A stretch of 64,000 bases of DNA. It comes from Vulcanimicrobiota bacterium. Lineage in GTDB: Bacteria; Vulcanimicrobiota; Xenobia; Xenobiales; JADMJV01. The stretch covers positions 2,788,891 through 2,852,890 of the forward strand of contig JBFWNU010000001.1 in assembly GCA_050250895.1 (NCBI GenBank), read 5' to 3'. Shown piece after piece: positions 34,211 to 64,000 of the stretch. Position 1 is the first letter of the stretch, and every line of letters starts with the position of its first letter. The translations under genes and the position numbers were made by a program. Under the pieces are notes generated by a model that worked only from the letters and a program-made list of their open reading frames with translations, searched no databases and was not told the origin of the DNA.

Positions 34211-35319
34211 ATGAAGCTTGTGACCTTTGGCCATTCCCTCGATTCCCCGTGCCAACCTCAGGGCACCGACCTCGACTCTCCCCAAACGCTGGTGTTGGTC
34301 TTTGGCGCCCCGGAATTTCGCGCTCAGCCCGAGGCGTTGGTCACTCTACGCGCTCGGTTTCCCCAGTCGGTGCTGGTGGGCTGCTCGTCTTCCGGCGAGA
34401 TCCTGGGCGAGGAGATCCACGACAAGAGCCTGGCGGTGGCCGTGGCCCACTTCGAAAAGAGCACCCTTCGGTCTGCTTCGACCACGGTCGACGGCGATAG
34501 CCGCAAAGCTGCCCGCGAGCTGGCCGAGCAACTCAAAGGACCCGGCCTCAAGGGAGTGCTGGTGCTCTCGGACGGCCTCAACGTGTCGGGCTCGGAACTC
34601 TCTCGCGGCTTCAACGAGGTGTTGGACGGGGTGGTCGTGACCGGCGGACTGGCCGGCGACGGCGACCGTTTCGCCTCGACCTGGGTGCTGGAGGGAAGCC
34701 AGCCCTCGAGCGGCCGCATCGTCGCGGTGGGCTTCTACGGAACCGACATGCTGGTGGGCTATGGCTCGCGCGGAGGCTGGGACGAGTTTGGTCTCGAACG
34801 CCAGGTGACCCGGGCCAAAGGCAGCGTGCTTTACGAGCTTGACGGCAAGAAGGCGCTGGCTCTCTACAAAGAATACCTGGGCGAATTGGCCAGCGAGTTG
34901 CCCGCCTCGGGCCTGCTCTTTCCCCTCTCCTTGCGCCGCGATGTCCACGACCAGCAGCGCTTCGTGCGGACCATTCTGGCCGTCGACGAAAAGGCCCAGT
35001 CGATGACCTTCGCCGGAGAGATTCCCGAGGGGTATCTGGCCCAACTGATGCACGCCAACTTCGACCGCCTCATTGACGGAGCCGGCGAGGCGGCCAATCT
35101 GGCCCGCGGTGGCCAGTTGGCCATCGCCATCAGCTGCGTGGGACGGCGCCTGGTGCTCGGTCAGCGGGCCGAGGAAGAGGTCGAGACGGCCTTCGAATCG
35201 CTGCCCGAGGGCACCCAGCAGGTCGGCTTCTATTCCTACGGAGAGCTCTCGCCGCAGTCGGACGGAAAGTGCGCGCTGCACAATCAGACAATGACCATGA
35301 CGACTCTGGGAGAACGTTG

Positions 35320-35320
<1 letters not shown>
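34211..35320 (+). CDS. FIST-domain sensor (NosP-like)
   Basis: GCSSSGEI, GGLAGD, SCVGR, GFYSYGE, LHNQTMT. Confidence 0.92.
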
Positions 35321-37434
<2,114 letters not shown>

Positions 37435-37496
37435 CCGCCTGGCCTTTGGCTGGCTTGACCTGGCTCTTGGCGGGCTGGCGGGTCGAGGCGGGCGGG

Positions 37497-37547
37497 CGGC
37501 CTGGTGGGCGGCGGGCACACAACCACTCCGGGTCGTTGTCTGGCTGA
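37497..37547. repeat. Single degenerate copy of the array C repeat
   Basis: GGCCTGGTGGGCGGCGGGCACACAACCACTCCGGGTCGTTGTC matches the 38.4-38.9 kb units in the same orientation. Confidence 0.85.
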
Positions 37548-37574
37548 GGGGCTAGCCAGGGCGGGGATGCAGGA

Positions 37575-37599
37575 AGGTGGGGGGACGGGCCCCCCACCT
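37575..37599. terminator. GC hairpin between convergent genes
   Basis: AGGTGGGGGG-acggg-CCCCCCACCT. Confidence 0.5.
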
Positions 37600-37619
37600 C
37601 CTCGCTCGCGGATACCGGT

Positions 37620-38240
37620 CTACCTGGTCGGCTTAGTGTCGAGTCCGAAGGGCTTGATGCCTCCGCCATCGCTGTCGCTGTCGGACGGATAGCGCAGGGT
37701 GGCGATGGGCCCGCCCGGCTTCACGCCGCCCGGTCCGCCGGGTTTGAGACCTCCGCCATCGCTGTCGCTATCGGACGGATAGCGCAGGGTGGCAATCCCG
37801 GTGCCGGGAGGCTGGCTGCCCGGGTTGCCAGGCTTGATTCCCCCCGGCCCGCCCGGCTTAATCCCCCCGCCGTCGCTGTCGCTGTCTGACGGATAGCGCA
37901 AAGTGGCGATGCCAGCGCCCGGAGGCTTTGGGCCACCGGGCTTGCCGGGCTTTGAGCCGCCATCGCTGTCACTGTCGGACGGGTAGCGCAAGGTGGCGAT
38001 ACCCGCTCCGCCAGGCTTGGAGCCAGACTGCCCTTCCAGGAAGTTATTGAAGAACGGGTTGGCGCTCTTGGCTTCGCCGGCCTTGCCGCCCAGTGAGTCC
38101 CACTTGGAGCCAAGCAGCTGATTGGCTGCTCGCGTCTGCAGTCCGTCCGGCTTTTTGGCGGTTGACTGAGCGGCCGGCGCCGCCTTCTTCGGCAGCTGGA
38201 TATTGTTATTGGTTTTGACTTTGTGGCTGGTGTTGATCAT
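37620..38240 (-). CDS. Multi-core microviridin/marinostatin-family (graspetide) precursor peptide
   Basis: Leader motif NPFFNNFLEGQ (cf. PFFARFL). Four identical IATLRYPSDSDSDGG cores (cf. marinostatin FATMRYPSDSDE, microviridin TxKYPSD). AAGGAG RBS. Confidence 0.9.
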   Translation of the reverse strand: MINTSHKVKTNNNIQLPKKAAPAAQSTAKKPDGLQTRAANQLLGSKWDSLGGKAGEAKSANPFFNNFLEGQSGSKPGGAGIATLRYPSDSDSDGGSKPGKPGGPKPPGAGIATLRYPSDSDSDGGGIKPGGPGGIKPGNPGSQPPGTGIATLRYPSDSDSDGGGLKPGGPGGVKPGGPIATLRYPSDSDSDGGGIKPFGLDTKPTR

Positions 38241-38408
38241 TGGTTCTCCTTCACACTTGCCTTCAGTCTAGGGTGGCTCGCTCTCGCTGGGTTTTGCCGA
38301 ATTGTTTCCGGTGTTGCCGTCTTGTAACAGCCTTGCGTCGGCTTGCGTCGCCGGGCAGTGACGAGGGAGTGTCGCTCCAAGCAGATTTAAAGGCTGGCTC
38401 GGCGGTGG

Positions 38409-38908
38409 GGCTGGCCTGGTGGGCTTGGCGGGCGGGCAGACAACCACCCCGGGTCGTTGTAAACAACCACTCCGGGTCGTTGTCCGGGCTGGCTCGACGG
38501 GCGGCGGGCAGGCAACCACCCCGGGTCGTTGTAAACAACCACTCCGGGTCGTTGTCCGGGCTGGCTCGACGAGCGGCGGGCAGACAACCACCCCGGGTCG
38601 TTGTAAACAACCACTCCGGGTCGTTGTCCGGGCTGGCCTGGTGGGCTTGGCGGGCAGACAACCACCCCGGGTCGTTGTAAACAACCACTCCGGGTCGTTG
38701 TCCGGGCTGGCCTGGTGGGCTTGGCGGGCAGACAACCACCCCGGGTCGTTGTAAACAACCACTCCGGGTCGTTGTCCGGGCTGGCCCGACGGGCGGCGGG
38801 CAGACAACCACCCCGGGTCGTTGTCCGGACTGGCCCGACGAGCGGCGGGCAGACAACCACCCCGGGTCGTTGTAAACAACCGCCTCGGGTCGTTGTCCGG
38901 GCTGGCCC
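38409..38908. repeat. Tandem palindromic array C
   Basis: Seven units spaced 72,72,74,74,72,49 bp. Thirteen ACAACCAC(C/T)CCGGGTCGTTGT-type hairpins, paired via AA, with short variable GC linkers. Confidence 0.92.
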
Positions 38909-39015
38909 GGTGGGTGGGGTTGGTCAGGCCGCGTTAATATTCTTGGAACATCGCGGAAATGTCCGGGCAACAGACTGGCAACGGCTGGGCAAAGCCAGTG
39001 GTTCAGGATAAGAGC

Positions 39016-39786
39016 ATGTTCCAACCACTCTTTCCCCACATCCTCAGAAAGCGCCGGCTAGCCCACAAGCTTCGGCAGAATGAACTGGCCAGACTGTGCG
39101 GTATTCCAGCCAAGAAGATGACCATGTTCGAGCGGGGCCTGCGCGTGCCGTCAGCCGATGAACTGGCCAGGCTCGAATGGGAGCTGGGCTCGTTCTACGG
39201 CTGCTCGTTTCGCCCTCCGCGCTATCAAGAGACCCTGCGCAACCAGGCCAGCCGTCTTTGCCAAACGCCCGAACCGTTCTTTCCTCCCAAGGACCGGTCG
39301 AACGCCGTCCGCTACCGGGCCGCTCTCCATCGCTATCCCGAGCTGGTGGCGAAGTTGACGCAGCGTATCCGAGCCCGGCCGGATTTCGAACTGGTCAACT
39401 ACTTCAGCGAGGCGATTGCCAGCGGCTCGGCCGAGGAGTGCTTGTATCTGATGCATCTGCTCGCCCAGGGCGGGCAGCCTGGCTTGCTCGTGCCAACCAA
39501 TCTGGGCTGGCTTCCTCACCCGGTGGTCGACCCCGACACGAGAGAGTGGGTCAGCCACCGGCCCCTGCCGTTGGTGGTCGTCGGGCAATCGTATTACTTT
39601 CTCCAGGTGTCTTTCGCCACGCCGGTCCTCTACTCGGTCGACGTGCTGCGGTGGGACGGCCGCTGGACCGTCGTCGAGATTGATGGCGAGGGGCACCGGG
39701 GCAAGGGGGACGAAGAGAAAGAGGCAGCGGTGAAGCTGCCCTTTGAGCGGATCAAGACGGCCGAGCTGCTGCGGCTGGTTCAGTAG
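39016..39786 (+). CDS. XRE-type HTH fused to a DUF559/Vsr-like PD-(D/E)xK nuclease domain
   Basis: N-terminal LRKRR...LRQNELARLCGI..KKMTMFERGLRVPS. C-terminal Q...YSVDVL...VVEIDGEGH. Confidence 0.72.
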   Translation: MFQPLFPHILRKRRLAHKLRQNELARLCGIPAKKMTMFERGLRVPSADELARLEWELGSFYGCSFRPPRYQETLRNQASRLCQTPEPFFPPKDRSNAVRYRAALHRYPELVAKLTQRIRARPDFELVNYFSEAIASGSAEECLYLMHLLAQGGQPGLLVPTNLGWLPHPVVDPDTREWVSHRPLPLVVVGQSYYFLQVSFATPVLYSVDVLRWDGRWTVVEIDGEGHRGKGDEEKEAAVKLPFERIKTAELLRLVQ

Positions 39787-47059: not shown

Positions 47060-48823
47060 GTGCTTCCAAAGGAATGGGTCGAAGAACTCGTCTATGGCAA
47101 GAGAGCGAATCATCGTTTCACCCAGGACACGCCAATACTCCCGGATGTGTGGTTCGAGTACGCCCAGAATGGAGGACGGCGTACTTCTTTGCTCTTGACG
47201 CCTCACTATGAAACCTCGCCGGGCTTCCTGGCCGCCCAACTTGACGTGGGGAATCCGGCGCAGATGGTCGCCCACAACCAGACGGTGGTCGTGGCGGATT
47301 TGACCTATCTCGAGATGCTGCGGCAAGCCTTGCCTCTCTCTGTTTGGTGGAAGAACGAGGTCGGTCCACTCGTCGACGGCACGACGGTATCGGACAGGTT
47401 GCGCCAGTTGGCCCGCTTGGATCCGCCGCGTCTCGCGGAACTACTGGACGGGAGCGACAAGGTTCGAGAAGAACTCGGGCTACCACGAGGACTGGTCTTG
47501 ATGCTCCGAGTGGGTGGGATTCTGGCGCGGGCGCTGGAGAAGCCCCCATCATCAAGCTATGAATGGCTGGAACTGCGGCATAGTCCTGAGGTCGTGCATT
47601 GCCTAGCAGACTTGTATGCCGGTCTGAAGGTCGAGGCCCCGGGAACTCTCTGGCTGGTGCAACGCAACCGGCCCGCCCAAGCATGTAGCAGTGCCTCTTG
47701 TCAGACTATCAAAGCAGATGCGGCTCGCTCACTGTTCAGCATCAGTTGTAGCAAGATCAACTGGGCTATTGTCGATAGTGGGGTTGACGCCCGCCATCCT
47801 GCCTTTCGCAGGCGCGACGCCAAAGGCGAGTTGGCCCCATTGGGTGACGCCTGGCAAGGGCAGTCACGGGTGGTGAGGACCTACGATTTCACGAGGCTGC
47901 GAGCACTTGTTCAAGGTGCCGCCGGTGCGCTCGAAGGGGCAAGGCGACTGCACACCTTCACATCGCGCCTCATTGAGGGTGCAGATGTTGATTGGAAGGG
48001 TCTGTCGGCGGGCCTCGAAATCCCGCACGACCAGCATTATCTACCGCCGACGAGCCCCCACGGAACGCACGTGGCAGGCATACTGGGGGCGGACCTGCGG
48101 GACGAGGATGCCGTGGCCATCGGTGTTTGCCCGGATGTTGAGCTTTTCGACTTGCGTGTCCTGAACGGTGAGGGACAAGGAGATGAGTTCTCGGTGATGG
48201 CGGCTCTACAGTTCGTCAGATATCTCAATTCGAAGAGTGAGAGAATGGTCGTTCACGGTGTGAACTTGAGTCTGTCGTTGTTTCACAACGTCCGCAACTA
48301 CGCTTGCGGGAGGACCCCTATTTGCGAGGAGTGTGAGAGGCTCGTCGGGTCCGGAGTGGCCACCGTTGCTGCCGCCGGGAATCAGGGTTATCAGGGCTTT
48401 GAGACTAAGAACGGGCTTCTGGAGGGCTATCAGGATATCAGCATCACTGACCCCGGAAACGCCGACGGTGTCATCACAGTGGGTTCTACGCACTATGGTC
48501 GGCCTCATACCTACGGCGTGAGCTACTTCTCCAGCCGAGGCCCGACCGGTGATGGGCGGTGTAAACCGGATCTGGTTGCGCCTGGTGAGAAGATCCAGGC
48601 GCCCATTCCTGGGGGCGGCTTGGATTCGATGGACGGTACCAGCATGGCCGCGCCACACGTGAGCGGCGCCTGTGCGCTCCTCATGGCCAGGCACGGCGAG
48701 TTCGTGGGTCAGCCGCAGCGAATCAAGAAGGTCTTGTGTCAGTCAGCAACCGATCTAGGTCGGGACCGCTATTTTCAGGGCGCGGGCATGTTGGATGTCT
48801 TGCGCGCCCTCCAATGTGTCTGA
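47060..48823 (+). CDS. Cytoplasmic S8 (subtilisin-family) serine protease
   Basis: Triad motifs IVDSGVD, HGTHVAG, GTSMAAPHVSG and oxyanion AAGN. No signal peptide. Confidence 0.93.
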   Translation: MLPKEWVEELVYGKRANHRFTQDTPILPDVWFEYAQNGGRRTSLLLTPHYETSPGFLAAQLDVGNPAQMVAHNQTVVVADLTYLEMLRQALPLSVWWKNEVGPLVDGTTVSDRLRQLARLDPPRLAELLDGSDKVREELGLPRGLVLMLRVGGILARALEKPPSSSYEWLELRHSPEVVHCLADLYAGLKVEAPGTLWLVQRNRPAQACSSASCQTIKADAARSLFSISCSKINWAIVDSGVDARHPAFRRRDAKGELAPLGDAWQGQSRVVRTYDFTRLRALVQGAAGALEGARRLHTFTSRLIEGADVDWKGLSAGLEIPHDQHYLPPTSPHGTHVAGILGADLRDEDAVAIGVCPDVELFDLRVLNGEGQGDEFSVMAALQFVRYLNSKSERMVVHGVNLSLSLFHNVRNYACGRTPICEECERLVGSGVATVAAAGNQGYQGFETKNGLLEGYQDISITDPGNADGVITVGSTHYGRPHTYGVSYFSSRGPTGDGRCKPDLVAPGEKIQAPIPGGGLDSMDGTSMAAPHVSGACALLMARHGEFVGQPQRIKKVLCQSATDLGRDRYFQGAGMLDVLRALQCV

Positions 48824-50072: not shown

Positions 50073-52460
50073 CTATCGGAACGAGCGCTGGCGGCTAGCG
50101 GTCCTGCGCTTGGCCTCATCGAGCCAAGCGTTTACGGAAGCGGGCCACAGCTTGATTTTCGTTTCTCCGTCATCACCGCCGGTGGGGTCCGGACAATAGG
50201 CTACCAGGCAGCCTTTGGCAAACCCGATGACGGGCTCGAAGCCATAGTAATGCCATTCCAATTGAGCCAGAGGACGGCCTTCTGAGGTCAGCAACTCCAT
50301 GTTCAGGTCGCAGCCACCAAAACTTTGGATGCCGGCGCTCCTCGTGACAGCAAGCACTCGACGACCATCCTCAGAGCATCTGAACGCTCCTTCAGCGAGC
50401 CCATCTCGCCCGTCGGTTTGCGTCTTGGCCACCGCAATTTGGAACAAGGGCCCAAACGGACGACCATCGCGAGCTACCACCTGCCAACTCCGCGCCACGG
50501 GCTCGACCCGGAAATTCGTCATCGGCTTGAGCCCTTTCTCCCAGGTGAGGTTCTCCAGCGGCGGCCCAGAAAGCGGTTGACACGAATCGAGATCCCAGAC
50601 TTCAGCCTGACCTTCCCTGGTCGAGAAAATCTGGAGGTAACGACCGTCGGCCGAGAAACGGGGTCGCCTTTTTGATTCCAATTCAACCCCGCCGACAAAG
50701 TCACGGACACCTACCTTGTAAGCAAAGCCATCGCGACTCCCGACAAATGCCATCGAGTCAGCGGCAACACCGTCCACCGCCAAAATCTCCACTCGCGAGA
50801 GCAACCATTCGTGGATCCGGGGTTCTCGGTAAGACGGGCCCTCGTACCAGACCAGATGGCCGTCGTCGCTGCCAAAGAGCGGGCCCGGGCTGCTGCATAT
50901 ATCGTAGCAACCCCAATTGCCCACAGGCCGCGATGTCTTTTCAATCCATCCGTCATCGCCCTTCCGGAAGCACCTTACGGTAGCCCCCCTCATGGGATAC
51001 AACCAGGAACTCCTTGCGAGCCATAGCTCGTCCCCGAGGGCCTCCAGAGCCTGAATGGGTGTCCCTGCGTAGCTAAACTCCTCCTGCTTGTGCCAGACCT
51101 TCCCGCCAACTTCCGCCATGAACACCTCCCCCATGTGATTGCCTGCCCACCACTGGTTGCCAACGCTGGCAATGGCGGTGACCGCCTCTCCACGGGAAAG
51201 CTCGGTCGAGACTGTGGGCTCGAGCCTCCCACCGCTCCAGTAGTGGACCTCTACGTGCCCATCGGCGAGTCCTACAGCGACCGTTTCTCCCTGAGCCGCG
51301 ATGGCCGTGACTGGTGAGTTGAGAGACAGCACTTCCTTCCAGGTCGTGCCGTCCTTCCCCACGAAGACCTTGCCATTGGCGGCCCCCATCAGCACAGTCC
51401 CATCCGCCCATGCGAAACGACACGACCGAAATTCGACCGCCTGTAGCGGTTTCTCTTCACGAAGTTCAAGTTCCAGGACCACCTTGGGGGTCGAGTGGCC
51501 GGCATTATCCCATCGCCACACCCTCCCGTCCTGACAGCCCATCAGGACAAAGTCTCCCTTGGGACTACACGAGACCGAACAGACCGGACTCTGAAGGTTG
51601 TATTTTTCTTCGACAGGAGCCGCCTGGAGGGCTTCGACAAGTGAGGCTTTTGTTGCTTGGTACTCGGCTGGAAACAGACGTTCCATCCCCGGACGTTGAA
51701 ATTCTTCGGTGAGGGTAACGGCCAGCTTTAGCCCCTGACTGGGATCCACCTTCAATGATTGACTTATCGCCAACAACTGCCCTCGAAGTCGCGAAACATA
51801 GGAGCCGTGAGCGAAGAACAGCGCGACCCCTAGAAGCGAAGTAAAGATTGTCAATAGGGCGGTCCCCGCAACCCACCGGGTGCGCTTGTGCTCTCGAACG
51901 TCTTCGCTGACCAGTTCCTTGAGTTCCATTCCACGGATTGGAGCAGAGAGGCGGGCCGCCGCCTGCAAGAACTCTGGGTTTCTAAGACTCAACGTACCGG
52001 GGCTAGACCTCGCCCAGCCGAGATCCACCCACAAAGGCTCCTCCTGGTAAGCCTTCCGCAGAGCCGCTGGTAATGCGTCGGTCAATCCCCAATCGAAGTC
52101 TTGGTCGCCCCACGCGAAGGTGCCGTCCGAGCGGACGAGCAGCAAATTTTCAACCCTGCCCATATCTTGAACCCAATACTTGACCTCTTCGCCGACCCAC
52201 TTCGAGGCAGCCGAGGTCGGGCAACCCAAAAGAATCAGGTATCGGCTGGACTCAAGGGCTGCCTGAATCGACTTCCACGCGCCCGGTGTTGCGGCCAAAT
52301 CCGTCTCGTCACGAAAGATCCGAACACTACGCAGCCGATACCAGGGTTTTGCAAGACCCTCGAGGGCTTTCTGCAGGTGGATGGCCAATAAGCGATCGGC
52401 GGCGTGGCTGTAAGAAATAAACGCGTCGAAACGTTCTATGGAAGAGCTCGATTTACTCAT
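50073..52460 (-). CDS. TIR-transmembrane-WD40/beta-propeller protein
   Basis: FDAFISYSH, IFRDETDL, SKWVGEEV. TM WVAGTALLTIFTSLLGVALFF. Repeats such as GCQDGRVWRWD. Confidence 0.85.
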   Translation of the reverse strand: MSKSSSSIERFDAFISYSHAADRLLAIHLQKALEGLAKPWYRLRSVRIFRDETDLAATPGAWKSIQAALESSRYLILLGCPTSAASKWVGEEVKYWVQDMGRVENLLLVRSDGTFAWGDQDFDWGLTDALPAALRKAYQEEPLWVDLGWARSSPGTLSLRNPEFLQAAARLSAPIRGMELKELVSEDVREHKRTRWVAGTALLTIFTSLLGVALFFAHGSYVSRLRGQLLAISQSLKVDPSQGLKLAVTLTEEFQRPGMERLFPAEYQATKASLVEALQAAPVEEKYNLQSPVCSVSCSPKGDFVLMGCQDGRVWRWDNAGHSTPKVVLELELREEKPLQAVEFRSCRFAWADGTVLMGAANGKVFVGKDGTTWKEVLSLNSPVTAIAAQGETVAVGLADGHVEVHYWSGGRLEPTVSTELSRGEAVTAIASVGNQWWAGNHMGEVFMAEVGGKVWHKQEEFSYAGTPIQALEALGDELWLARSSWLYPMRGATVRCFRKGDDGWIEKTSRPVGNWGCYDICSSPGPLFGSDDGHLVWYEGPSYREPRIHEWLLSRVEILAVDGVAADSMAFVGSRDGFAYKVGVRDFVGGVELESKRRPRFSADGRYLQIFSTREGQAEVWDLDSCQPLSGPPLENLTWEKGLKPMTNFRVEPVARSWQVVARDGRPFGPLFQIAVAKTQTDGRDGLAEGAFRCSEDGRRVLAVTRSAGIQSFGGCDLNMELLTSEGRPLAQLEWHYYGFEPVIGFAKGCLVAYCPDPTGGDDGETKIKLWPASVNAWLDEAKRRTASRQRSFR

Positions 52461-52470
52461 TGCAAAAGGC

Positions 52471-54570
52471 CTACTTTCTGGCCAAGTCAAAGGGCGGGCT
52501 AGTAATCACATCGAAGCCGACCCCCGCCTGCAGGGCCAGGTTGTGGCTGGGCTTGTTCACCAGCAGGGCTCGGAGACCAGTGAAGCGGACTCTTCCATCC
52601 GGAAGCAGCGAAACGTCGACAGAGTTGACCCGATCCCTGAGCGGTTGGGTTAAGTGAACCATGCCGAGGCTAACCGAGGGCTCCAGGTCGAAAACGTCCT
52701 CATCGCCAACGACCACGACCTGGTTGTTGGCCGCCTCACCGCGCTCAACAATGGCAAGGCTGAACTTGCCTTCACCGTGAACCAACCCCAGTCGTGGCTC
52801 TTTCAACGCTAGAGGTTGGTAGTGATAGACCAGGATGTGGCGCAGGTCCCTTCCGTCCGTCCCATCGTTGTTCTTATCCAACCTTATTCGCTCCTGGTCC
52901 TCTGGCCGAACCTGGAGGAGGACGATTCCTGATGGGTCCACTCGAGCGTCCAACTCCAGTAGTTCAAACTCGTGCTTGTGTTCCAGCTCAAACAACCATT
53001 TGAAGAGCCTGAGGCCGGTCGATACCAATCCCAGTGCGCCGATGCCAGCGGGGCCAAGCAGTCCGGCCACCAATCCTGGTAAAGCCGACCGGGCGCCTTC
53101 CGCTATGAACTGCGGGAGCCTCCCTCTCTTGAGTTCGGCGTGGAGTCTTATCAACTCGCCAGTGAGTTCCAGCGGAGTCTTGCCGTCAAAGTTTGCGCCC
53201 AATTGCTGCAGGGCCAACTGACCCAAACCTCGCCCCAAATCGAGCGGCGCCACCCCAGCCGTCGCGGCCGTCACACCGCTGACCACCTCGAGGAGTCGGC
53301 GAAGGGTTTGGCGGTTGTGGAACTCACTGACGGTGCCCTCACCCGCCCTGAGCAACTTGCCGGCACTCTTGTCTTCCAAAGGGATGAGGAAGAGAGAAAA
53401 CGCAACCCCACCGAAAGTTGGCTTTCTGAGAGTCGGCCCATCATTGTGCACTACTCGCAGGAAAAAATTGCTATTCTCGAAGAAGTCCTGTTTCTTCTTG
53501 CCGGGGTCGAACATGGTCACTACGAATGTCCAGTCGCGGCCCTGATCCGAATCGAAGACCGAAGGCAGACCGAGGGCCTCGAGACCCTGACCTGATAAAT
53601 CAACTGAGAACTCATAGTTCGCGGACAAGAGTCGCGGCATCAAAGGCAGCGGGTTTGCTCTGCCCCCGTGATGCAAGTTTAGCCTCAGCGGATAAACCGT
53701 CGGAACGGGCCCGACGGGCCTGGTTTCGTCCCCTCCATCGTCGAACAGTTGGCGGCCGAGACTCGTGAGTTCCACGATTTCCGCTAGAGGAAGGAGCGGA
53801 TCGATGGAACCTTGCCGGACGCCACGAACGAACCCGCTGTCTTTGAGAGCATTTACGGCCGACATGACATCGTGAGAACGGTCGGCTACGGTCATTGCGC
53901 CCAGAGCCAGGTCTTGGACTAGCCGGAGACGTTCACGCGCCTCCGCCTGGGCATCCGCTAGAACGATGTTGAGCAAATCTAGTCCACGTCTCGTCAAGTT
54001 CTGGACCTCAGCCTCCATTTCGGAGGTGAGGTTGACAAATCCGGCACGAGCAAGCCGCAAAAGACTGTTCTTGACGTCGATTTCCAGCTTACCCGTTCGG
54101 CCCAAGAGCAGGTCTGCCAGAACTACAAGGTCCCGGAGTTGCAAGTCTTGCGTAACGGAGGTAAATGCCTCTGGCAACAGGCTGGACGGGATGCTCGAAA
54201 GGGCCGCGACGAGCAGTTGTTGGAGCTCATCGATGGCGAAGAGTTGGAGCTCGTCCAAGTCTGGCAGTTCCACTACGGGGTCGTCTAGGGCAACAGGAAG
54301 CAGCGTGGCCAGACCCTCGCGGCGCCGGGACAACGCAAGTTCCCAAAGAGGCTTGAACCAGTCTCCTTGTACGTCCGTCAGGCCATCGCTCAAAAGCGGG
54401 ACGAGTATGGCGCAGCCTCGGACCAAGTCCACCGCATCCAACAGAGGCGGTGAAACCACGCTCACTACCGCAAAAGGAATCAGCGCTTTGAATTGCTCTT
54501 CGAGTGAAAGGACAACGTCTATGGCAGCATCGCTAGCCAGTATGCCAACCTTTAACAAATGAACCCCCAT
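52471..54570 (-). CDS. Hypothetical multidomain protein (degenerate TIR-like N-terminus, two winged-helix-like segments, hydrophobic hairpin)
   Basis: AILVPLLS...ELAL.RR....LLPVAL. LARAGFV...LTRRG and LKDSGFV...LTSLG. Confidence 0.6.
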   Translation of the reverse strand: MGVHLLKVGILASDAAIDVVLSLEEQFKALIPFAVVSVVSPPLLDAVDLVRGCAILVPLLSDGLTDVQGDWFKPLWELALSRRREGLATLLPVALDDPVVELPDLDELQLFAIDELQQLLVAALSSIPSSLLPEAFTSVTQDLQLRDLVVLADLLLGRTGKLEIDVKNSLLRLARAGFVNLTSEMEAEVQNLTRRGLDLLNIVLADAQAEARERLRLVQDLALGAMTVADRSHDVMSAVNALKDSGFVRGVRQGSIDPLLPLAEIVELTSLGRQLFDDGGDETRPVGPVPTVYPLRLNLHHGGRANPLPLMPRLLSANYEFSVDLSGQGLEALGLPSVFDSDQGRDWTFVVTMFDPGKKKQDFFENSNFFLRVVHNDGPTLRKPTFGGVAFSLFLIPLEDKSAGKLLRAGEGTVSEFHNRQTLRRLLEVVSGVTAATAGVAPLDLGRGLGQLALQQLGANFDGKTPLELTGELIRLHAELKRGRLPQFIAEGARSALPGLVAGLLGPAGIGALGLVSTGLRLFKWLFELEHKHEFELLELDARVDPSGIVLLQVRPEDQERIRLDKNNDGTDGRDLRHILVYHYQPLALKEPRLGLVHGEGKFSLAIVERGEAANNQVVVVGDEDVFDLEPSVSLGMVHLTQPLRDRVNSVDVSLLPDGRVRFTGLRALLVNKPSHNLALQAGVGFDVITSPPFDLARK

Positions 54571-54766
54571 AGAGCTGTTTGATAGGTCGAAGGTCCCACC
54601 CTAAGGCAGGAGTGGCCTCTTCTACTCGAGCCTTTCACTCGATGGTTGGCCCGTCCTTCTGCCCGACCGCGGAGCCGACCTTATGCGGAGGTCGGCAGAA
54701 TGGCGTGAAGGATGAGGTCTCGTCGGCCGGATTCGCAGGGGTCGTGCCCTGATCTTGCAAGGCTTG

Positions 54767-54806
54767 TCTCTCAGGAGCGCTCTCTCTCAGGAGCGCTCTC
54801 TCTCAG
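54767..54806. repeat. 16-bp tandem direct repeat in a divergent intergenic region
   Basis: TCTCTCAGGAGCGCTC x2 plus a partial copy. Confidence 0.7.
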
Positions 54807-54908
54807 TCGGGGACGCAGGCTCAGGCGGCTTTGGGTCGAATCGCTTTGCGATTCGAACCCAGCGAGGGCAATTCGCCATCAAATGAAGCAGGACGGAGTT
54901 TGCAGTTC

Positions 54909-56423
54909 ATGGGTCGTGAGCGCGAAGAATATATTACCTTCTTAAGCTACGCTTGGAATGATGACCGGGACTGGACGACCCATTTCGGCAATCTACTTGA
55001 AAGTATCCTTCAACAGTTCTCTGGTCAAAAGATGATGAAGATCTTTCGTGACCTAAAGTTGCGTTCGGATAAGATTCTATCGGAGGGGATACGGGAGGCT
55101 CTTGATTGTTCATCAAGCCTTACGTGCGTGATGTCCCCATCTTATCTCAAGTCCCAGTGGTGTCAAAATGAATTAAGCTATTTTCAGGAGTATCATCCGA
55201 CCCGCCCAATATTCCTCGTGACAGCAATTCCTGTGGAGGGCATCGATGGCCGTCTTCACCATCCTTTTTGGAACTATGTCCAGGAGCGAGGCCGATACAA
55301 GAGAATCAAGCCGACGGACGACGAGTTTCACGAGATTGTGGAGTACTTGGGGCAGGATATCCTAGAAGCCCTCGGTTTGTTCGAACCCCCCGGCGGCGCG
55401 CCGAAGTCCCACACCGCCGTGTCCCTCCTGGCGGAAGAGGATCGGACCAGATTGGCCTCTGGGCCACTGCCTACTGCATCGGAGAAGGGGATGCACCTTG
55501 AGGTCGCCGGACCCCATGACCTTCAACAGGTTGTTCTCTACAACTTCAACAGGAAAGCCCAAGCCTATTTTCGGTCGTTGCTTGCGCCCGCGCCAATGCA
55601 GTCACAGAACGCGCTGGAACTTCTTCGTATGATAGAGAAGTATTGCGAGGATGAAGTATTGGCCTACGGGTCTAGGTGGCTTGACGTAGGCTGTGGAACG
55701 GGTCTCGTGCTAGCGTTGATGCGAGACTGCCAAACAGCCCCTCCTCTCAACGATATCGTCACCCTCGGGTTAGACTATTCTTCTGAAATGATCAGGCTGT
55801 CAAAAGAGGTCGCTGCATACAATGATGTAGTCCAACTTGACGTCGTGGAGATGGACGCCGAGAAGTTGGGTCAACCGTTCGATTGCGTGGTGGCGAACAA
55901 CGTATTCCATTGGCTCTTGGATCTGGAAAAGATTCGGCGGGCCATGAAGAACTGTGCCTCGTGCCTGAGGCACGGCGGGATCTTGGCGGCCAGTATCGCG
56001 GGCCGTGGAACGGGGAAAGCCTTCTTCCAGGTATACCGGGAGACGATGGCCGAACTTCTTGACGGGGCAACGATGGCGAACTGGAAGTCACACATCGACA
56101 ATCCCATCGGGCTTCAAGCTTTGAGTGAAATCGTGGATCTCGCCCTTCCCAACGACTTCACTGTTGTTGAAGCTCGTCTAAGATATGAGCCTGTAGTCTA
56201 CAAAAACCCTGAAATGTATGTTGAGGCAGCTCGGGCCTACGGGGAATTTGTCTTCACTGCGCCATTTCTGGGACTGAACGGGGACGCCCTGGTTGATCAG
56301 TTCTGGCGTCGTCTCAAAGAGAAGTTTCGGCAACTCTGGGAGCAGTCACCTGCCGCAGAGCGGTTAGGTGGTAGATACCTACACGATCAGTACATGATCT
56401 ACGTTCTATATCGAAAGAGATGA
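54909..56423 (+). CDS. TIR domain fused to class I SAM-dependent methyltransferase
   Basis: FLSYA, IFRD, MSPSYLKSQWCQNEL. WLDVGCGTG, GLDYSSEMI, FDCVVANNVFHW. Confidence 0.88.
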   Translation: MGREREEYITFLSYAWNDDRDWTTHFGNLLESILQQFSGQKMMKIFRDLKLRSDKILSEGIREALDCSSSLTCVMSPSYLKSQWCQNELSYFQEYHPTRPIFLVTAIPVEGIDGRLHHPFWNYVQERGRYKRIKPTDDEFHEIVEYLGQDILEALGLFEPPGGAPKSHTAVSLLAEEDRTRLASGPLPTASEKGMHLEVAGPHDLQQVVLYNFNRKAQAYFRSLLAPAPMQSQNALELLRMIEKYCEDEVLAYGSRWLDVGCGTGLVLALMRDCQTAPPLNDIVTLGLDYSSEMIRLSKEVAAYNDVVQLDVVEMDAEKLGQPFDCVVANNVFHWLLDLEKIRRAMKNCASCLRHGGILAASIAGRGTGKAFFQVYRETMAELLDGATMANWKSHIDNPIGLQALSEIVDLALPNDFTVVEARLRYEPVVYKNPEMYVEAARAYGEFVFTAPFLGLNGDALVDQFWRRLKEKFRQLWEQSPAAERLGGRYLHDQYMIYVLYRKR

Positions 56424-56519
56424 CGAAGGTTGGCTGAACGCGGGAGCCGAGACAGACGCCACGAGGTCTACATAACCGTCTCGCGATGACATTCAAGCTC
56501 TAAGAGAGAACCAAGCTTC

Positions 56520-57746
56520 ATGCACACAGCTCAAGACCTGGACCAACTCCCAGGAATCCTTCTCGCTCAGCCCTGCATTCGGGATGGCCTCAACGAGCCA
56601 TACTCTCCCAATCACACTTCTGGGCAGACAACCACCCAGCACGTTGCCACGCAGATGGAAATGCTCACCAGGCTCCGACACGGAGACTATGCGGCGTTGC
56701 AGGCGATGGTGGCGAACCCCAACGGCGCCTTAACCGTGTCCGCGGAGGAGTTGAAGGATGTTCTCGCGCCTATGGCTGAGCAATTTGGCTCCTCAGAGTG
56801 GATGGTCCTCACGCTTGTCGTAGCCTATCACGACCTGGGCAAGATGGAGGCTGCTTGGGCCAACGAGCACGGTCTTGACACCACTGGGGTAGAGTGGTTG
56901 GCTCACGACTATGACAGTAAAGGCCTGCTGGTGGCCAATCCCGGACTCTTGACTCCCTACTCGCTCGACGAAAAGGAGCGAGAAGCCGTTCTGGAGCTTT
57001 GTCGTCTCCATTCGGTCCCCGGCCAGTTCTTTTTCGGAGAAGGCAGTTTGGCCGCCTACGAGGGGCTGCGGCATCAGCACCCTTTCGGGATGACGATGGG
57101 GCGGACTCACGGTTTGCTCGACGTGATGTCGGCTCTAAATCATGGGTTCGTCAGACCGATCCTGGAATCGCACCGCGACCTAGGAGAGCTCGTGGCCAAG
57201 GCTCAGTCTTCAGGAAGGCCTCTGGACGATGTCTTTCGAGATGCCTCGGAAGAACAGTTCGAGAAGGAAGTCGATAGCGGGGCGCCCGTGGGTGCTGTTA
57301 GTTGGCGGCGCCTTCGTCGTCTGCTCGGCAAGAGATTTTCTCCCGAGAATCTCAATGAGGCGTTGACTGCCGTCCCTGCAGAGTTTGTTACTCTGTTCGA
57401 CCTGGTGTCTGATGGCGACCATACCTGGTATGGCACCTACATCGCCAACGCCTTCGGCAGCGGTCTGTTGGCCGCTTTGGATGGGACGTCCGAGGCGGCC
57501 GGAGCGGTCGGGCTGCTGGTCAAGGCAATCGCTTGTGCGGGTCGACGAATGGAACATCGGAAGGAGTGGACCGTGAGTGCGCTAGAGCCGTCGCTTCAGG
57601 TGAAGGAAGGACGAGATGGCGCTCTGGCAGTCCTGCGAAGTCTGGCTCCAGCCGAGACCCTGGAACAAGCCTATCAGCTTCTAGATGCTGGGCCCCTGCG
57701 CTATAAAGTGGGCGATTCGGGAGTGGAGTTTTCGTGGCAGGCGTGA
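56520..57746 (+). CDS. HD-superfamily phosphohydrolase-like protein
   Basis: QHV...AYHDLGK...AHD...RLHS...LLDVMS spacing is typical of the HD fold. Confidence 0.7.
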   Translation: MHTAQDLDQLPGILLAQPCIRDGLNEPYSPNHTSGQTTTQHVATQMEMLTRLRHGDYAALQAMVANPNGALTVSAEELKDVLAPMAEQFGSSEWMVLTLVVAYHDLGKMEAAWANEHGLDTTGVEWLAHDYDSKGLLVANPGLLTPYSLDEKEREAVLELCRLHSVPGQFFFGEGSLAAYEGLRHQHPFGMTMGRTHGLLDVMSALNHGFVRPILESHRDLGELVAKAQSSGRPLDDVFRDASEEQFEKEVDSGAPVGAVSWRRLRRLLGKRFSPENLNEALTAVPAEFVTLFDLVSDGDHTWYGTYIANAFGSGLLAALDGTSEAAGAVGLLVKAIACAGRRMEHRKEWTVSALEPSLQVKEGRDGALAVLRSLAPAETLEQAYQLLDAGPLRYKVGDSGVEFSWQA

Positions 57747-57873
57747 ATTACGCTTCTTCTCTCTGGACGTCGCCAACAGGCCCGGTGACGATAGCTTGTC
57801 TGCAGACCGATTGCACTCACTGAAGGATCCCGATGTAATGCAACGAAGCGGGTCGTCACTATGAGGGGGTCGA

Positions 57874-58455
57874 GTGGTAACTTTCACCAAACGCAGCTTT
57901 CGGTTGAATCTAAGTTTTGCTCAATTCGGGGGTGAGATCGACCAGGAGGATCGCCAGTGCGCCTGGGAGTTCTACTGTGAACTCACGACTCGGGTTGGTG
58001 TCCGGGGTAGATTGGACGGATCGGGCAGCGATGTCTTCACCGGCGAGATTTTGGTTGAAAGTCTCGAGTCGCTATGTACGTTCTTCCAGACGTCCCGCAT
58101 CATTATGAAGAAATACCCGGTTGGACGGGTTGCCGCCGGGGAGGCCAACCTTGGATTTGCCATTGCTCAGTTGCTCGAGTTCGTCGTCCGGCCATTCCTC
58201 GAGAAGTGGCAAGCGACCTATCGGTACTGGTGGACTGTTCATCAGGACGGCCGCAGAAACCCATTCGCCCTACAAGCAGAGTTCCCCAAGTTCGAAGAGT
58301 TGACGAAAGACTGGGTCGCCGTCCGCAAGTTTTGCCGGTCCGCTGCGCACGAACTGGCCAAAGCCTATCATCTCATCGACCTGCTGGACCTGGCACCCGA
58401 CGAGGCCCGTCAGCAACAGGTGAACGAGACGGCCGCTGTTTGCAGGCTGATTTAG
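57874..58455 (+). CDS. Helical hypothetical protein
   Basis: AWEFYCELTTRV, SL.TFF...R.IMKKYP, VVRPFLEKWQ. First gene of the TIR-SLOG operon. Confidence 0.75.
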   Translation: MVTFTKRSFRLNLSFAQFGGEIDQEDRQCAWEFYCELTTRVGVRGRLDGSGSDVFTGEILVESLESLCTFFQTSRIIMKKYPVGRVAAGEANLGFAIAQLLEFVVRPFLEKWQATYRYWWTVHQDGRRNPFALQAEFPKFEELTKDWVAVRKFCRSAAHELAKAYHLIDLLDLAPDEARQQQVNETAAVCRLI

Positions 58456-58466
58456 CGGAGGACTAT

Positions 58467-59744
58467 TTGCTTAAGACGACAGTAGATACTAGGGCACCGT
58501 TTTGCCTCTATGTGGTCTGGCACCCTGAATGCACCGATGGGAAATACCTGGCCCGCCAAGTCTTTGATTGGTTTCACGCCCCGAGCGGCGAACTCCATCG
58601 GTCGGGCTTGGGAATTCCGGTATATTACCGCACTTCCAAGCAGGGGCCACCGCGTCCGCTAGAGGCGGACGAGGCCCAGCACAACGTCGTAGTCGCTCTT
58701 GTGGATCACAATCTGGTCGCGGACGCGGGTTGGCGTGGCTTCCTCGCGGGGTGTCGCCACAAGAATACGACGATCTTTCCGGTCCCGCTTCATCGCTCAG
58801 CCTATCAGCTAAGTTCCGTCAACGCTCTCAACTTTCTTCGCGTGGACGGTCGAAAAGATGGAGAAGAAGACCCTCAGCAACGACAGGAACGCCGTGGTCA
58901 ACGATTGCGCCGGCAACTGACCGAAGTCTGTGCCCGGTTGCTTCAGAAGTCGCTGCACGGAAAGACCGACGAAACCAGAGCTAATCTCGAGACGATTCTT
59001 GAGAAGATACAAGACGAGGTGGATTGCCTCGAGTTGCGCAAGTACCTCGCACCGGTCTTCCGTGACGAAGCGGGGGAACCCGTCACCATCTTTCTCAGCC
59101 ATGCCAAGGCTGATGGCACCGATGTCACCGAGAAGTTGCGAATGCATGTCCAGACCTACGGCCAGTTGCGCTCTTTCTACGATGAGAGTGACCTGCCTAT
59201 CGGCTACCAGTTCGGGAACAAGTTGGAGGAGGCCGTGAAAGAAGGTGGCGCTATGATTTCAGTGGTGACCGATGCCTATGCCAGCCGACCTTGGTGCCGG
59301 GCTGAGTTGGCTTGGGCGCGGCGTCCACGACTGGAGGAGGGTAGCCTAAGTCATTGGAAGGTGACGCCCACCCTGGTTGTGACAGCAATGAGCGGTGGCC
59401 TGACCAGGACCATACCCGAAATAGGGAATCTTCCTTCCATCCACTGGGTGCCAGGACGCGAACAGTACATATTGGATTTGCTCCTTCTGGAGGTGCTGCT
59501 GGCAAGTTATCATCGCCTGAACGCGCAGAGCATTGTTCATCGTTCCGGGCGCCATGTAATTAGCTGGGTGCCCGACCCGATCTCGGTCATGGAACTGGCC
59601 GCGACCTGCCGCGCTGAAGGGCTTGAGCTAAACGAACTGGTTTACCCGGGTCACGGTATCTCGGCGGCCGAACGGGAGGCCATCAAGCGCATCGTGCCAG
59701 GAACGCTCACTTTGAGGACCTATGAGGAGGCCTGGCAAGAATGA
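58467..59744 (+). CDS. TIR-domain protein (extra N-terminal TIR-like domain plus catalytic-type TIR)
   Basis: GGAGGA RBS before TTG 58467. IFLSHAKADG, FYDESDL, AYASRPWCRAEL. Confidence 0.87.
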   Translation: MLKTTVDTRAPFCLYVVWHPECTDGKYLARQVFDWFHAPSGELHRSGLGIPVYYRTSKQGPPRPLEADEAQHNVVVALVDHNLVADAGWRGFLAGCRHKNTTIFPVPLHRSAYQLSSVNALNFLRVDGRKDGEEDPQQRQERRGQRLRRQLTEVCARLLQKSLHGKTDETRANLETILEKIQDEVDCLELRKYLAPVFRDEAGEPVTIFLSHAKADGTDVTEKLRMHVQTYGQLRSFYDESDLPIGYQFGNKLEEAVKEGGAMISVVTDAYASRPWCRAELAWARRPRLEEGSLSHWKVTPTLVVTAMSGGLTRTIPEIGNLPSIHWVPGREQYILDLLLLEVLLASYHRLNAQSIVHRSGRHVISWVPDPISVMELAATCRAEGLELNELVYPGHGISAAEREAIKRIVPGTLTLRTYEEAWQE

Positions 59745-60712
59745 GCAGGAAGCTTGTCGCTCTCTCGTTCGGCGATAGCCCTGACCTGGCGGAATTGGGC
59801 TATGATGCCGAGCATCTCGATGTGGTCGCCATGCGCATCGCCAGGTTTCTCTTGCGTCGTGGTTATGACATCGCATACGGCGGGGTCTTCCGTTCTCAAA
59901 GCTTTCTAGACACATTGCTCGAACTTGTTCGTGCCGAGACGGCCCATCAGCAGGAAGAGGCGCAGGCCGAGGGACGGCAGTGGTCTGAATCTGAGCCACG
60001 ACTATTTAGCTATCAGGCCTGGCCCTATTATGATGCTATCACCACAGAAGTCATAGCCGATACTCTCGGTTTCATTCGCTACGTCAAGGTCCATCCCGTC
60101 GACGGAGAAGGCATCGACCATCGCACTCGGGCCCGTCACTTTTTGGATCCCCCAGACGGCAACATTCCCAAAGGCGCGGCTTTGATGGCAGCGGCGCTCA
60201 CCCGGATGCGCAGGGCCATGACCGCGCCAGCAGTTGACATCGACGGGGGTGACGTCTCCGCCCCCAGCGCCCGCATTGTGCTAGGCGGAGCCGTCGAGAA
60301 TTGGGCCGGAATTTTGCCCGGCATAGCAGAAGAGATTCTCTGGACTGCCCGAGCCGGGCAACCCGTCTACATCTTGGGGGCTTTCGGAGGCTCAGCAAAG
60401 GTTGTCGCAGACTATCTGCGCGACGGTGAGAATTTACCCAAAGTCCTGACCCTTGAGCATCATCGCTCCAACGCCAAAATGGCCAGGGTCATCGAGGGTT
60501 TCCCCGCCATCGGCTTCGAGGCTGTTTATCCCGAAGAGGGGTTCCGGGAACTCCAAAGGTTTCTCGCGGAAGCATGCGGGAACTTTAGCCTGCTCAATCC
60601 GCTCGGTGAAGAGAACCGCGAGCTAATGACAAGTCACAATGTCATCAATATCCTTCGTATACTCAAAACTCAGTTTCCCGATCTTCGGGGGCAGCACTCG
60701 ACCCCCAGTTGA
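59741..60712 (+). CDS. SLOG-superfamily protein (LD_cluster2-like)
   Basis: ALSFGDSPDL..LG....HL, IAYGG, ALTRMRRAM, ARIVLGG, PGIAEE, PVYILGAFGGSA. ATGA overlap with the TIR gene. Confidence 0.82.
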   Translation: MSRKLVALSFGDSPDLAELGYDAEHLDVVAMRIARFLLRRGYDIAYGGVFRSQSFLDTLLELVRAETAHQQEEAQAEGRQWSESEPRLFSYQAWPYYDAITTEVIADTLGFIRYVKVHPVDGEGIDHRTRARHFLDPPDGNIPKGAALMAAALTRMRRAMTAPAVDIDGGDVSAPSARIVLGGAVENWAGILPGIAEEILWTARAGQPVYILGAFGGSAKVVADYLRDGENLPKVLTLEHHRSNAKMARVIEGFPAIGFEAVYPEEGFRELQRFLAEACGNFSLLNPLGEENRELMTSHNVINILRILKTQFPDLRGQHSTPS

Positions 60713-60757
60713 CGTTGGTGCCGCTCGTTTTGCCGGGTGAGAGAGAGTCTCGGGTCT

Positions 60758-63700: not shown

Positions 63701-64000
63701 CTGGAAATCAATTGTGGGACCGAACAGGAAACGGTCTCTGATGTACCAACCCACGGGAGTGTTGGAGCCCACTCCAGCAACGTAGACCATCCTCTCGGGA
63801 TCCACCCCGGCTTCGAGCTCCTTCCAAGCATTGGCGACGGCGTTTAAACGGGTCGCCGTGATACGTTTGAATTTGCAGCCAAATTCCTGGTCTAGTTGGT
63901 CGAAGAAGCCGCTCCAACCATTGGCTGACCAGACGCCGAGGGATTGATGGGTGTCGTAAGGCAATAGCTGGATCACGCCATCAAAGGAGTGAATAACACG
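60758..64000 (-). CDS. Lipase/LCAT-like hydrolase-(macro-like)-CHAT caspase-family protease-helical domain protein, 5'-truncated
   Basis: Frame is open to the window edge. GDGTVP...SHGNL. VGVTHGDL. CHAT dyad LHLAGHG and FINCCH, AAGWAVED, WGAYQCYGDP. Confidence 0.88.
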   Translation of the reverse strand, partial: RVIHSFDGVIQLLPYDTHQSLGVWSANGWSGFFDQLDQEFGCKFKRITATRLNAVANAWKELEAGVDPERMVYVAGVGSNTPVGWYIRDRFLFGPTIDFQVTAEGDGTVPWARGKLPGVPMFYAEASHGNLPSHRPAFEGYLQLLNDGWTQGRGVEPTQPPARRLRSGPELEYDDVPLTFLTQRELEAAVLGAQDVAPLDQQPDTRVRVGVTHGDLGYAAFPVALGCYHKQPIEGSERALDYKLGGHLSLERACGVYPWRLESSRRYLLPDPDGTGAFKGGILIGLGQFGALKQTQLVKTVRQAVVEFLLEGRATTVGGGLSFVAIGSMEGGIGLEGSISCILNGVLEAKQVLASAGASDDLRHIEFIELYEDRAIAAAHVARQLCQGEKLGGMFEFSGEVRTVSGRLSRASFQRGMSKWQRLQITEEETGQLRHTLLTSLARSEVMPLPYDRQLVDGMLRQASTVPQWNPDLSRALYQLLMPYRLKEVGDSEEKVILLLDEAAARFPWELLVDGGEDRDSRPVSVRSEMIRQLASSEFRDQARPTDLFTALVVGDPVSKLAELKAAQDEARAVAQTLSAGKFQVTHLPRPDGVTVGTALLSRPYRVLHLAGHGVYDNSGEKPEAGMVIGPDMLLTPATVSQLNPCPELVFINCCHLGRIERYEQRSNELAANLATAIIRAGARAVIAAGWAVEDNSAELFARTFYQEMSKGETFGRAVLHARQATWNEYSQFNSWGAYQCYGDPEYRWSSDPGYAQSRETDPYVSPREFVRDLENLSQRAEVCQLDDYSGLLKELESLRRAAKPTWLGEERGSGRPDVLLALARAYSQLIHPLFGLSEIGQAALPADSALVSAFDLFHKAKESSLITMDDLSILLRLEMLLWFRAEQSEPTPRSIQEILDDRKGMVAICPNAKAHSRIGGGAMLAMLREAGDKTSDALLEEMRAGYQAAVELARDDDYLLDYLFLARMCQAWPAAAPELVLPALEASGSTFFEHMKAARRLFMRWVCDGAPEEELGRVLAGFEASWQRGSSPFQFRSLLELLEFCIKVRRRKFSAQDPVVIRLVKLNNAVVGWIRGAAR

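Follow-up and report, generated by a model that had tools for sequence, protein, structure and literature searches.

Background

The closest described systems are the microviridins and marinostatin. Marinostatin has the lactone architecture in common with the microviridins and lacks the lactam (PMC13039773), and its P1 residue is Met (PMC9623506). The role of PFFARFL as a leader motif has been described in the known systems (PMC8939145, PMC7823629). Class II precursors carry up to five cores (PMC13039773 and PMC7823629, summarising Ahmed et al. 2017), and the class II clusters contain double-glycine motifs and a C39-peptidase transporter (PMC13039773, PMC7823629). The absence of MdnB is common, and marinostatin-like peptides without the amide bond are expected (PMC7823629). 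Regarding the ligases, AMdnC handles three cores distributively, and a leader peptide is able to activate the ligase when supplied in trans (PMC5934393). Multi-core precursors, the loss of the lactam ligase and the action of the leader in trans are already published. For marinostatin, the sequence and the ring assignments used in this work are those generally known or those given in a preliminary description of the locus, which was made from the DNA sequence.

Here we analysed one window, that is, the whole stretch of 64,000 nucleotides (C1:2788891-2852890) taken from an assembly of 9.50 Mb in 17 contigs, which is 99.6% complete by marker genes with an estimated contamination of 3.7%. Its source belongs to an uncultivated lineage with large genomes, and the records of the nearest named relatives of this lineage are titled Candidatus Eremiobacterota/Xenobia. 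Our preferred reading, to which we give a probability of roughly 0.7, is that one gene of the window is a functional class II (multi-core) graspetide precursor of the microviridin/marinostatin branch and that its bicyclic, marinostatin-type product is matured in trans.

The precursor gene and its four cores

The preliminary description had reported a 206-aa ORF with the motif NPFFNNFLEGQ and four identical IATLRYPSDSDSDGG cores, and we found this ORF at exactly 37620..38240 on the minus strand. The features of the gene are the following:

37620..38240, minus strand: precursor gene, 206 aa, with a long leader, 4 cores, 3 linkers and a 13-aa tail (ORF; NF033738, PF12559)
38246..38250, minus strand: Shine-Dalgarno-like AGGAG, 5 nt before the ATG start codon (read from the sequence)
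38091..38129, minus strand: upstream leader helix AANQLLGSKWDSL (residues 38-50), with a Trp that is invariant in the clade (putative helix and putative ligase contact)
38037..38057, minus strand: PFFNNFL at residues 62-68, the leader motif for recognition by the ligase; its P, F, F and L do not vary among 8 clade leaders
37956..38000, minus strand: core 1, IATLRYPSDSDSDGG (residues 81-95)
37866..37910, minus strand: core 2, peptide identical to core 1 (residues 111-125), 6 synonymous differences from core 1
37752..37796, minus strand: core 3, peptide identical to core 1 (residues 149-163)
37662..37706, minus strand: core 4, peptide identical to core 1 (residues 179-193), 2 synonymous differences from core 3
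37573..37601, minus strand: GC-rich 12-bp hairpin about 20 nt past the stop codon, without a U tract; a possible transcript end at most (fold)

The leader region comprises 80 residues, with NPFFNNFLEGQ at residues 61-71. The linkers are rich in Pro, Gly and Lys and differ in both length (15, 23 and 15 aa) and sequence. Regarding the hairpin behind the stop codon, its folding energy was -37.6 kcal/mol over 81 nt, with a z-score of only -1.41, which is not exceptional. A search for sequencing runs over window positions 37300-39000 listed none.

The four 45-nt core copies vary at 9 sites, namely 8 third codon positions and the first position of one Leu codon (TTG/CTG), and any two copies differ at 2 to 7 sites. 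All 9 differences are synonymous. One core can undergo 135 different single-base changes, of which only 33 are synonymous, and the probability of finding 9 out of 9 by chance is about 3e-6, a rough figure that assumes equal rates and independent sites. Gene conversion would also wipe out the synonymous differences; therefore, the pattern points to purifying selection on the cores at the peptide level, in agreement with what had been proposed from the synonymous variation.

Family membership and predicted product

We searched the ORF against the models of the microviridin/marinostatin precursor family, as had been suggested for this gene. Both models gave scores above their curated cut-offs: NF033738 of NCBIfam ('microviridin/marinostatin family tricyclic proteinase inhibitor') reached 57.7 bits over 4 stretches (cut-off 26), and PF12559 of Pfam (Inhibitor_I10) reached 38.2 bits (cut-off 21). 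By these profile matches the window ORF is confirmed as a member of the family (graspetide group 1). Furthermore, the PFFARFL-type leader motif is present as PFFNNFL, and the family skeleton T-x-(K)-x-P-S-D-x-(D/E)-(D/E) is matched four times by T-L-R-Y-P-S-D-S-D, with acceptors and donors in register. Class II is defined by one leader with at least two tandem cores, and here one leader precedes four.

The position of the lactam-forming Lys is occupied by Arg in all four window cores, which is the marinostatin condition. Actually, none of the 16 cores encoded by the three precursors of this genome has the lactam Lys, since all of them have R or A at that position. By register with the family skeleton, the predicted ester partners would be Thr3-Asp9 and Ser8-Asp11 (numbered on IATLRYPSDSD, with Ile as residue 1), and the additional Ser-Asp beyond the second acceptor has no predicted partner. 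The Leu of the core aligns with the P1 Met of marinostatin, which would make the peptide a Leu-P1 inhibitor. The Leu-P1 bicyclic marinostatin analogue predicted earlier is supported by the family spacing of Thr, Ser and both Asp, by the Arg in place of Lys and by a genome with one ligase of the MvdD/MdnC type and none of the MvdC/MdnB type. A two-ester product without lactam is likewise supported, as it fits the sequence and the ligases encoded in the genome.

The preferred reading would work as follows. The leader, through the PFFNNFL helix and the preceding clade-conserved L..LG..W helix, would recruit and activate an ATP-grasp ligase of the MvdD/MdnC type, which would be supplied in trans from G000:C13:33060-34052 of the same genome. 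This enzyme would move distributively over the four cores and form two omega-ester rings in each, whereas no lactam would be formed, with Arg in place of Lys and with no MvdC/MdnB-type ligase in the genome. The product would be four copies of a bicyclic, marinostatin-like inhibitor with Leu at P1, probably directed against serine proteases of the subtilisin, chymotrypsin or elastase type. The same ligase would also serve the two paralogous precursors, with 5 and 7 cores. What we infer in this scheme is the ring pattern, the maturation in trans, how the cores are freed and exported, and which proteases are targeted.

Ligases and paralogues in the genome

The Pfam scan of the window covered 48 ORFs (28 + 20), and none of them contained an ATP-grasp, ABC or C39 domain, which bears out the earlier statement that no ATP-grasp ligase lies in these 64 kb. 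Furthermore, none of the genome-wide ligase matches (TIGR04184, PF21068, TIGR04185, TIGR04187) was on contig C1. Searching the whole genome for MvdC/MvdD-type ligases and for paralogous precursors, as had been proposed, yielded an MvdD/MdnC-type ligase on C13 beside one paralogue, and two paralogues altogether. The preliminary description had named the complete lack of a graspetide-type ATP-grasp ligase in the genome as evidence against its reading, and the ligase on C13 is such an enzyme. The word orphan thus suits the locus, with no ligase in the window or on C1, and does not suit the genome. Whether a precursor lies beside its ATP-grasp ligase is a property of the cluster rather than of the peptide family; therefore, the window precursor is still a family member, although the cognate-type ligase is on C13.

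The MvdD model TIGR04184 matched the genome at two places, C13:33072-34028 (393 bits) and C2:878733-879623 (107 bits), both below the equivalog cut-off of 475 bits. By its sequence the C13 ligase is related to MvdD, and it does not qualify as a certified equivalog (393 against 475 bits). Its gene is also the sole match in the genome to PF21068, the pre-ATP-grasp domain of MvdD. The enzyme (330 aa) scored 393.6 bits on the MvdD model against 249.5 bits on the MvdC model. Regarding solved structures, its best relatives were 5ig9_A (293.9 bits, E 1e-86), CdnC 7mgv (244.7 bits), 5ig8 (212.5 bits) and AMdnB 7m4s (178.5 bits); we take 5ig9 to be the ester-forming MdnC with bound leader and 5ig8 the lactam-forming MdnB. 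The models TIGR04185 (MvdC) and TIGR04187 found nothing in the genome outside the C13 and C2 loci. TIGR04185 returned only the C13 ORF, with a lower score than TIGR04184 did, and the distant C2 pair, and we found no lactam ligase of the MvdC/MdnB type in this genome. As the genome is 99.6% complete, it is unlikely that such a gene was overlooked. With one ester-type ligase, no lactam-type ligase and no lactam Lys in 16 cores, a bicyclic marinostatin-type product matured in trans is therefore the best reading. We assume that C13, a separate 94-kb contig, comes from the same cell as the window.

The NF033738 search and a six-frame motif scan agreed on exactly three precursors in the genome. The five-core paralogue is a 214-aa gene on C13, about 730 bp from the ligase and on the opposite strand, with a 223-aa ORF without known function between them. 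This ORF, a 467-aa ORF, also without known function, and an EamA transporter adjoin the ligase; we rejected all three as conserved cluster members, because neither the other precursor loci nor the ligase loci retrieved from relatives had counterparts of them. The seven-core paralogue is a 283-aa frame at about 3.003-3.004 Mb of C1 (L003 1126-1977, minus strand), 177 kb from the window, with no ligase nearby. It scored 68.7 bits on NF033738, and its cores read IA(V/T)TQAYPSDSDHD and IATMAYPSDSD(T/H)D.

The leader layout is common to the three precursors and to those of relatives: a helix of the type L..L(G)..W, a short spacer and PFFxxFLE(G/D)Q. In the numbering of the aligned fragment, W18, P33, F34, F35, L39 and Q42 were invariant in all 8 leaders. 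We modelled the complex of the C13 ligase (alignment of 8) with residues 30-95 of the window precursor (alignment of 8). The score was 0.62 (0.62, 0.59 and 0.64 in three runs) against 0.01 for the best of 3 controls. In the calibration, 58 of 80 solved complexes and 2 of 110 mismatched pairs came up to the mark, and these counts hold only roughly here, given our own alignments. The runs had at least 44% of the contacts in common, with a partner pLDDT of at least 54. The PFFNNFLEGQ stretch was placed in contact with ligase residues 151-205, the lowest-error contacts being those of PFFNNFL with residues 167-205, and the upstream helix (fragment residues 4-17) was also put on the ligase. The model supports a binding of the window leader to the C13 ligase. 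However, a ligase-leader complex of this family is already solved, and therefore the pass of the model shows likeness to the solved complex rather than binding of this particular pair.

Precursors in related genomes

Among 41 genomes of the same class, our own included, NF033738 had matches in 9 and TIGR04184 in 19 (E <= 0.001). The same-genus genome G001 (98% complete, 640 contigs) encodes ligases and has no NF033738 match; thus, the precursor gene is not conserved even within the genus. The multi-core precursors of relatives had from 2 to 20 core motifs per frame. The window precursor, with four cores, is within the published 'up to five', whereas the paralogue with 7 cores and the relatives with 14-20 go beyond it. 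In one locus (L011, G022:C143:11723-13499) the frame 76-1656 encodes 527 aa with one leader and 20 [YF]PSD cores; behind it, where the contig ends, a ligase begins.

Regarding the ligases of the relatives, many of them have Lys-type cores beside tandem ligase pairs, and others have Arg/Ala-type cores beside a single ligase, as in G013:C59 and G020:C84; the G013:C59 ligase is 65% identical to the C13 enzyme. There are also precursor loci without a ligase, on contigs with no ATP-grasp match in the search of these genomes: G016:C22, G020:C114, G024:C107 and G006:C181. The first three look syntenic by their ORF layout, and in G006:C181 the precursor is convergent with a hybrid histidine kinase, as it is in the window. 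For one relative locus (L040), the scan covered 8 of its 16 ORFs.

A word-indexed search of 5.8 billion proteins retained 4 proteins (the query itself included) among 631 candidates. With HMMER, run in full over 1.84 billion cluster representatives, 39 proteins were obtained at E <= 0.001, 10 of them at <= 1e-10. Each of the 39 has at least 2 core-like motifs, with a maximum of 14, and the exact core TLRYPSDSDSD is absent from all of them except the query. A PFF-type motif was present in 32 of the 39; it begins at residue 35 or later in 20 of these 32, and in 9 of the 32 a Trp lies 6-22 residues before it. The extension of about 60 aa before the leader motif had been called unusual, and this view did not hold: with such positions of PFF and with a helix conserved in the clade, a long N-terminal extension is, in the sequences compared, a common trait of the multi-core relatives. 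The window precursor is therefore not very unusual among its relatives, where multiple cores, long extensions and ligase-less loci all recur.

A scan with a single protein for related loci returned 3 loci, all of a different, two-core type. The two-core precursors (L036-L038, and L044 4891-5268, minus strand) have an N-terminus that resembles a twin-arginine signal or a membrane anchor (..RRRFL..GGALVAAATLA), directly before PFFxxxLE, and they have the conserved C-terminal tail KPF(W/F)SLFSA in common. The neighbours of the L044 precursor are a sulfatase gene and a radical SAM/SPASM gene, and a hybrid histidine kinase gene runs convergently to it.

The titled records with related precursors were only MAGs labelled Candidatus Eremiobacteraeota, Candidatus Xenobia and Burkholderiales. 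The precursor of the record titled 'uncultured Burkholderiales' (L038) is nearly the same as those of Ca. Eremiobacteraeota and Ca. Xenobia, and this label may be wrong. In the literature searched we found no paper with both 'Eremiobacter' and 'microviridin', and similar precursors may be present in the supplementary tables of PMC8939145 or in Ahmed et al. 2017. The main text of PMC9259500, on large-genome marine Eremiobacterota, contains none of the words 'microviridin', 'ATP-grasp' and 'graspetide'.

Processing of the product

The preferred reading supposes that the cores are released. Instead, the modified precursor could stay uncut and work as a single polyvalent inhibitor whose four bicyclic heads are carried by flexible Pro/Gly/Lys linkers. 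The machinery at hand would suit such a product, because none of the three precursor loci has a C39-ABC exporter or peptidase. Actually, no C39-ABC exporter was found in the genome, and its only C39-like match is a stand-alone 226-aa ORF on C7 beside an M29 aminopeptidase. The linkers, Pro/Gly-rich and variable in length, point in the same direction, and so do the up to 20 cores per frame in relatives. The four-repeat graspetide plesiocin is also active as a multi-repeat molecule. However, Gly-Gly motifs follow every core of the window precursor and are also found inside its linkers, and in class II such motifs are read as cleavage sites (PMC13039773, PMC7823629). Marinostatin is a free 12-mer (PMC9623506), and cores can be released by unspecific proteases (PMC7823629). 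Weighing these points, we consider it unlikely that the product remains uncut.

Genomic surroundings

The neighbourhood of the precursor gene includes the following features:

35269-37434: hybrid histidine kinase, downstream of the precursor and convergent with it (Pfam scan)
38431-38909: REP-like palindromic array of 480 bp, directly upstream of the precursor (72-nt period, 5.4 copies, 95% matches)
38959-39786: divergent HTH_31 protein, upstream of the precursor beyond the REP-like array (Pfam scan)
47060-48823: S8 subtilase, 9 kb from the precursor (Pfam scan)

The REP-like array is built of 23-nt palindromic units (ACAACCACCCCGGGTCGTTGT), and one further unit lies downstream of the precursor at about 37515-37545. 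With a loose pattern, 26 such units were found genome-wide, 20 of them on C1. The best matches of the flanking histidine kinase and HTH genes in relatives are only 44-57% identical, and no orthologous locus could be aligned in relatives by means of these two genes. We dropped the S8 subtilase as a target or partner of the precursor, because no link between them was seen. Other parts of the window encode a 2361-aa protein made almost entirely of TPR repeats (109-7194, 38 TPR_12 stretches) and a defence-like run at 50073-63976, with TIR-WD40 (50073-52490), TIR-methyltransferase (54831-56423), TIR (58074-59744), SLOG cluster 2 (59741-60712) and CHAT protease (60758-63976) genes. Past about 45.5 kb few ORFs of the window pass the GC3 filter, which may mean a lower GC3.

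A gene between repeats and far from its ligase could be a decaying or silent stray copy, duplicated away from the ligase and no longer matured. REP-like repeat arrays do flank it, no ligase is encoded for at least 1.1 Mb along C1, the gene was not found in G001, and the promoter and terminator scans of the locus detected no sigma-70-like promoter and no canonical terminator. Nevertheless, the reading frame is intact behind a good Shine-Dalgarno site, none of the 9 substitutions among the cores alters the peptide, and the leader retains every residue that is invariant in the clade and is placed on the C13 ligase by the complex model. Furthermore, the genome has a second paralogue without a ligase, and three relatives have syntenic loci without one. 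We therefore judge a stray copy to be very improbable.

That the precursor is matured not by the C13 enzyme but by the ATP-grasp pair at C2:878.7-880.3 kb, which holds the only other RiPP-type ATP-grasp matches in the genome, is hardly credible, since the C2 enzyme shares only 26% identity with the C13 ligase and has no PF21068 match, and since the C2 enzymes adjoin an unrelated Lys/Glu-rich repeat ORF of their own without a PFF leader and make up a separate system.

The C2 genes form a second, different candidate graspetide locus (G000:C2, about 878.7-881.9 kb, L002). Its two ATP-grasp ORFs encode 336 and 289 aa, the first of them with 149.6 bits on TIGR04187, and they are downstream of a 321-aa open frame with repeats of about 32 aa (..EKQTFKAENEKLGDKSYNEKAIQNDKLL..). 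These repeats are reminiscent of the (KxxE)n lactam motifs that PMC12848669 describes.

Implications for genome mining

The window gene adds to the microviridin/marinostatin family a predicted Leu-P1 protease inhibitor that lacks the lactam and is repeated four times. It is also a clear case, by prediction, of one ligase with several unlinked multi-core substrates. Genome mining based on clusters would overlook precursors that are not linked to a ligase.

A broader idea, which we offer as speculation and to which we would give little weight at present, is that a whole regulon of scattered genes for polyprotein precursors depends on one ester ligase, with 3 genes and 16 cores in this genome and up to 20 cores per gene in relatives. 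The clade-specific second helix of the leader (L..LG..W), located some 12 residues ahead of PFF, would then be an added docking element that enables this service to multiple substrates in trans, and the products might be uncut polyvalent protease traps.

Comparison with known systems

The class I precursors MdnA/MvdE of microviridins J/K resemble the window precursor in the leader motif, the TxxYPSD skeleton and the family HMMs. However, they have a single core, a tricyclic product with a Lys-Glu lactam, two ligases and the PFF motif near the N-terminus.

The multicore omega-ester RiPP chryseoviridin (CdnA/CdnC, Chryseobacterium) is like the window precursor in its several cores, and among the solved structures related to the C13 ligase CdnC (7mgv) ranks second. 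Its core motifs and ring patterns differ from those of the window, and it is a Bacteroidota system with linked genes.

Among the class II systems, AMdnA/AMdnC of Anabaena sp. PCC 7120 has, like the window precursor, one leader with several tandem cores, and AMdnC is an MdnC-type ligase that forms two lactones per core in a distributive way, with a leader able to act in trans (PMC5934393). Nevertheless, AMdnA has three non-identical, Lys-containing cores and is clustered with its ligases, whereas the window precursor has four identical Arg-type cores and an unlinked single ligase.

The last comparison is with marinostatin of Alteromonas sp., a bicyclic 12-residue inhibitor of subtilisin and chymotrypsin. 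The window core reads ATLRYPSDSD, and its Thr, Ser and both Asp have the same spacing as in marinostatin. Both have a hydrophobic P1 residue followed by Arg, and both lack Lys and thus the lactam. A PFFARFL-type leader has also been reported for marinostatin (PMC7823629). The P1 residue is Leu in the window core and Met in marinostatin, and the window core continues as Ser-Asp-Gly-Gly where marinostatin has its terminal Glu. Unlike marinostatin, the window precursor has four cores, a 61-residue extension before PFF and a locus without a ligase.
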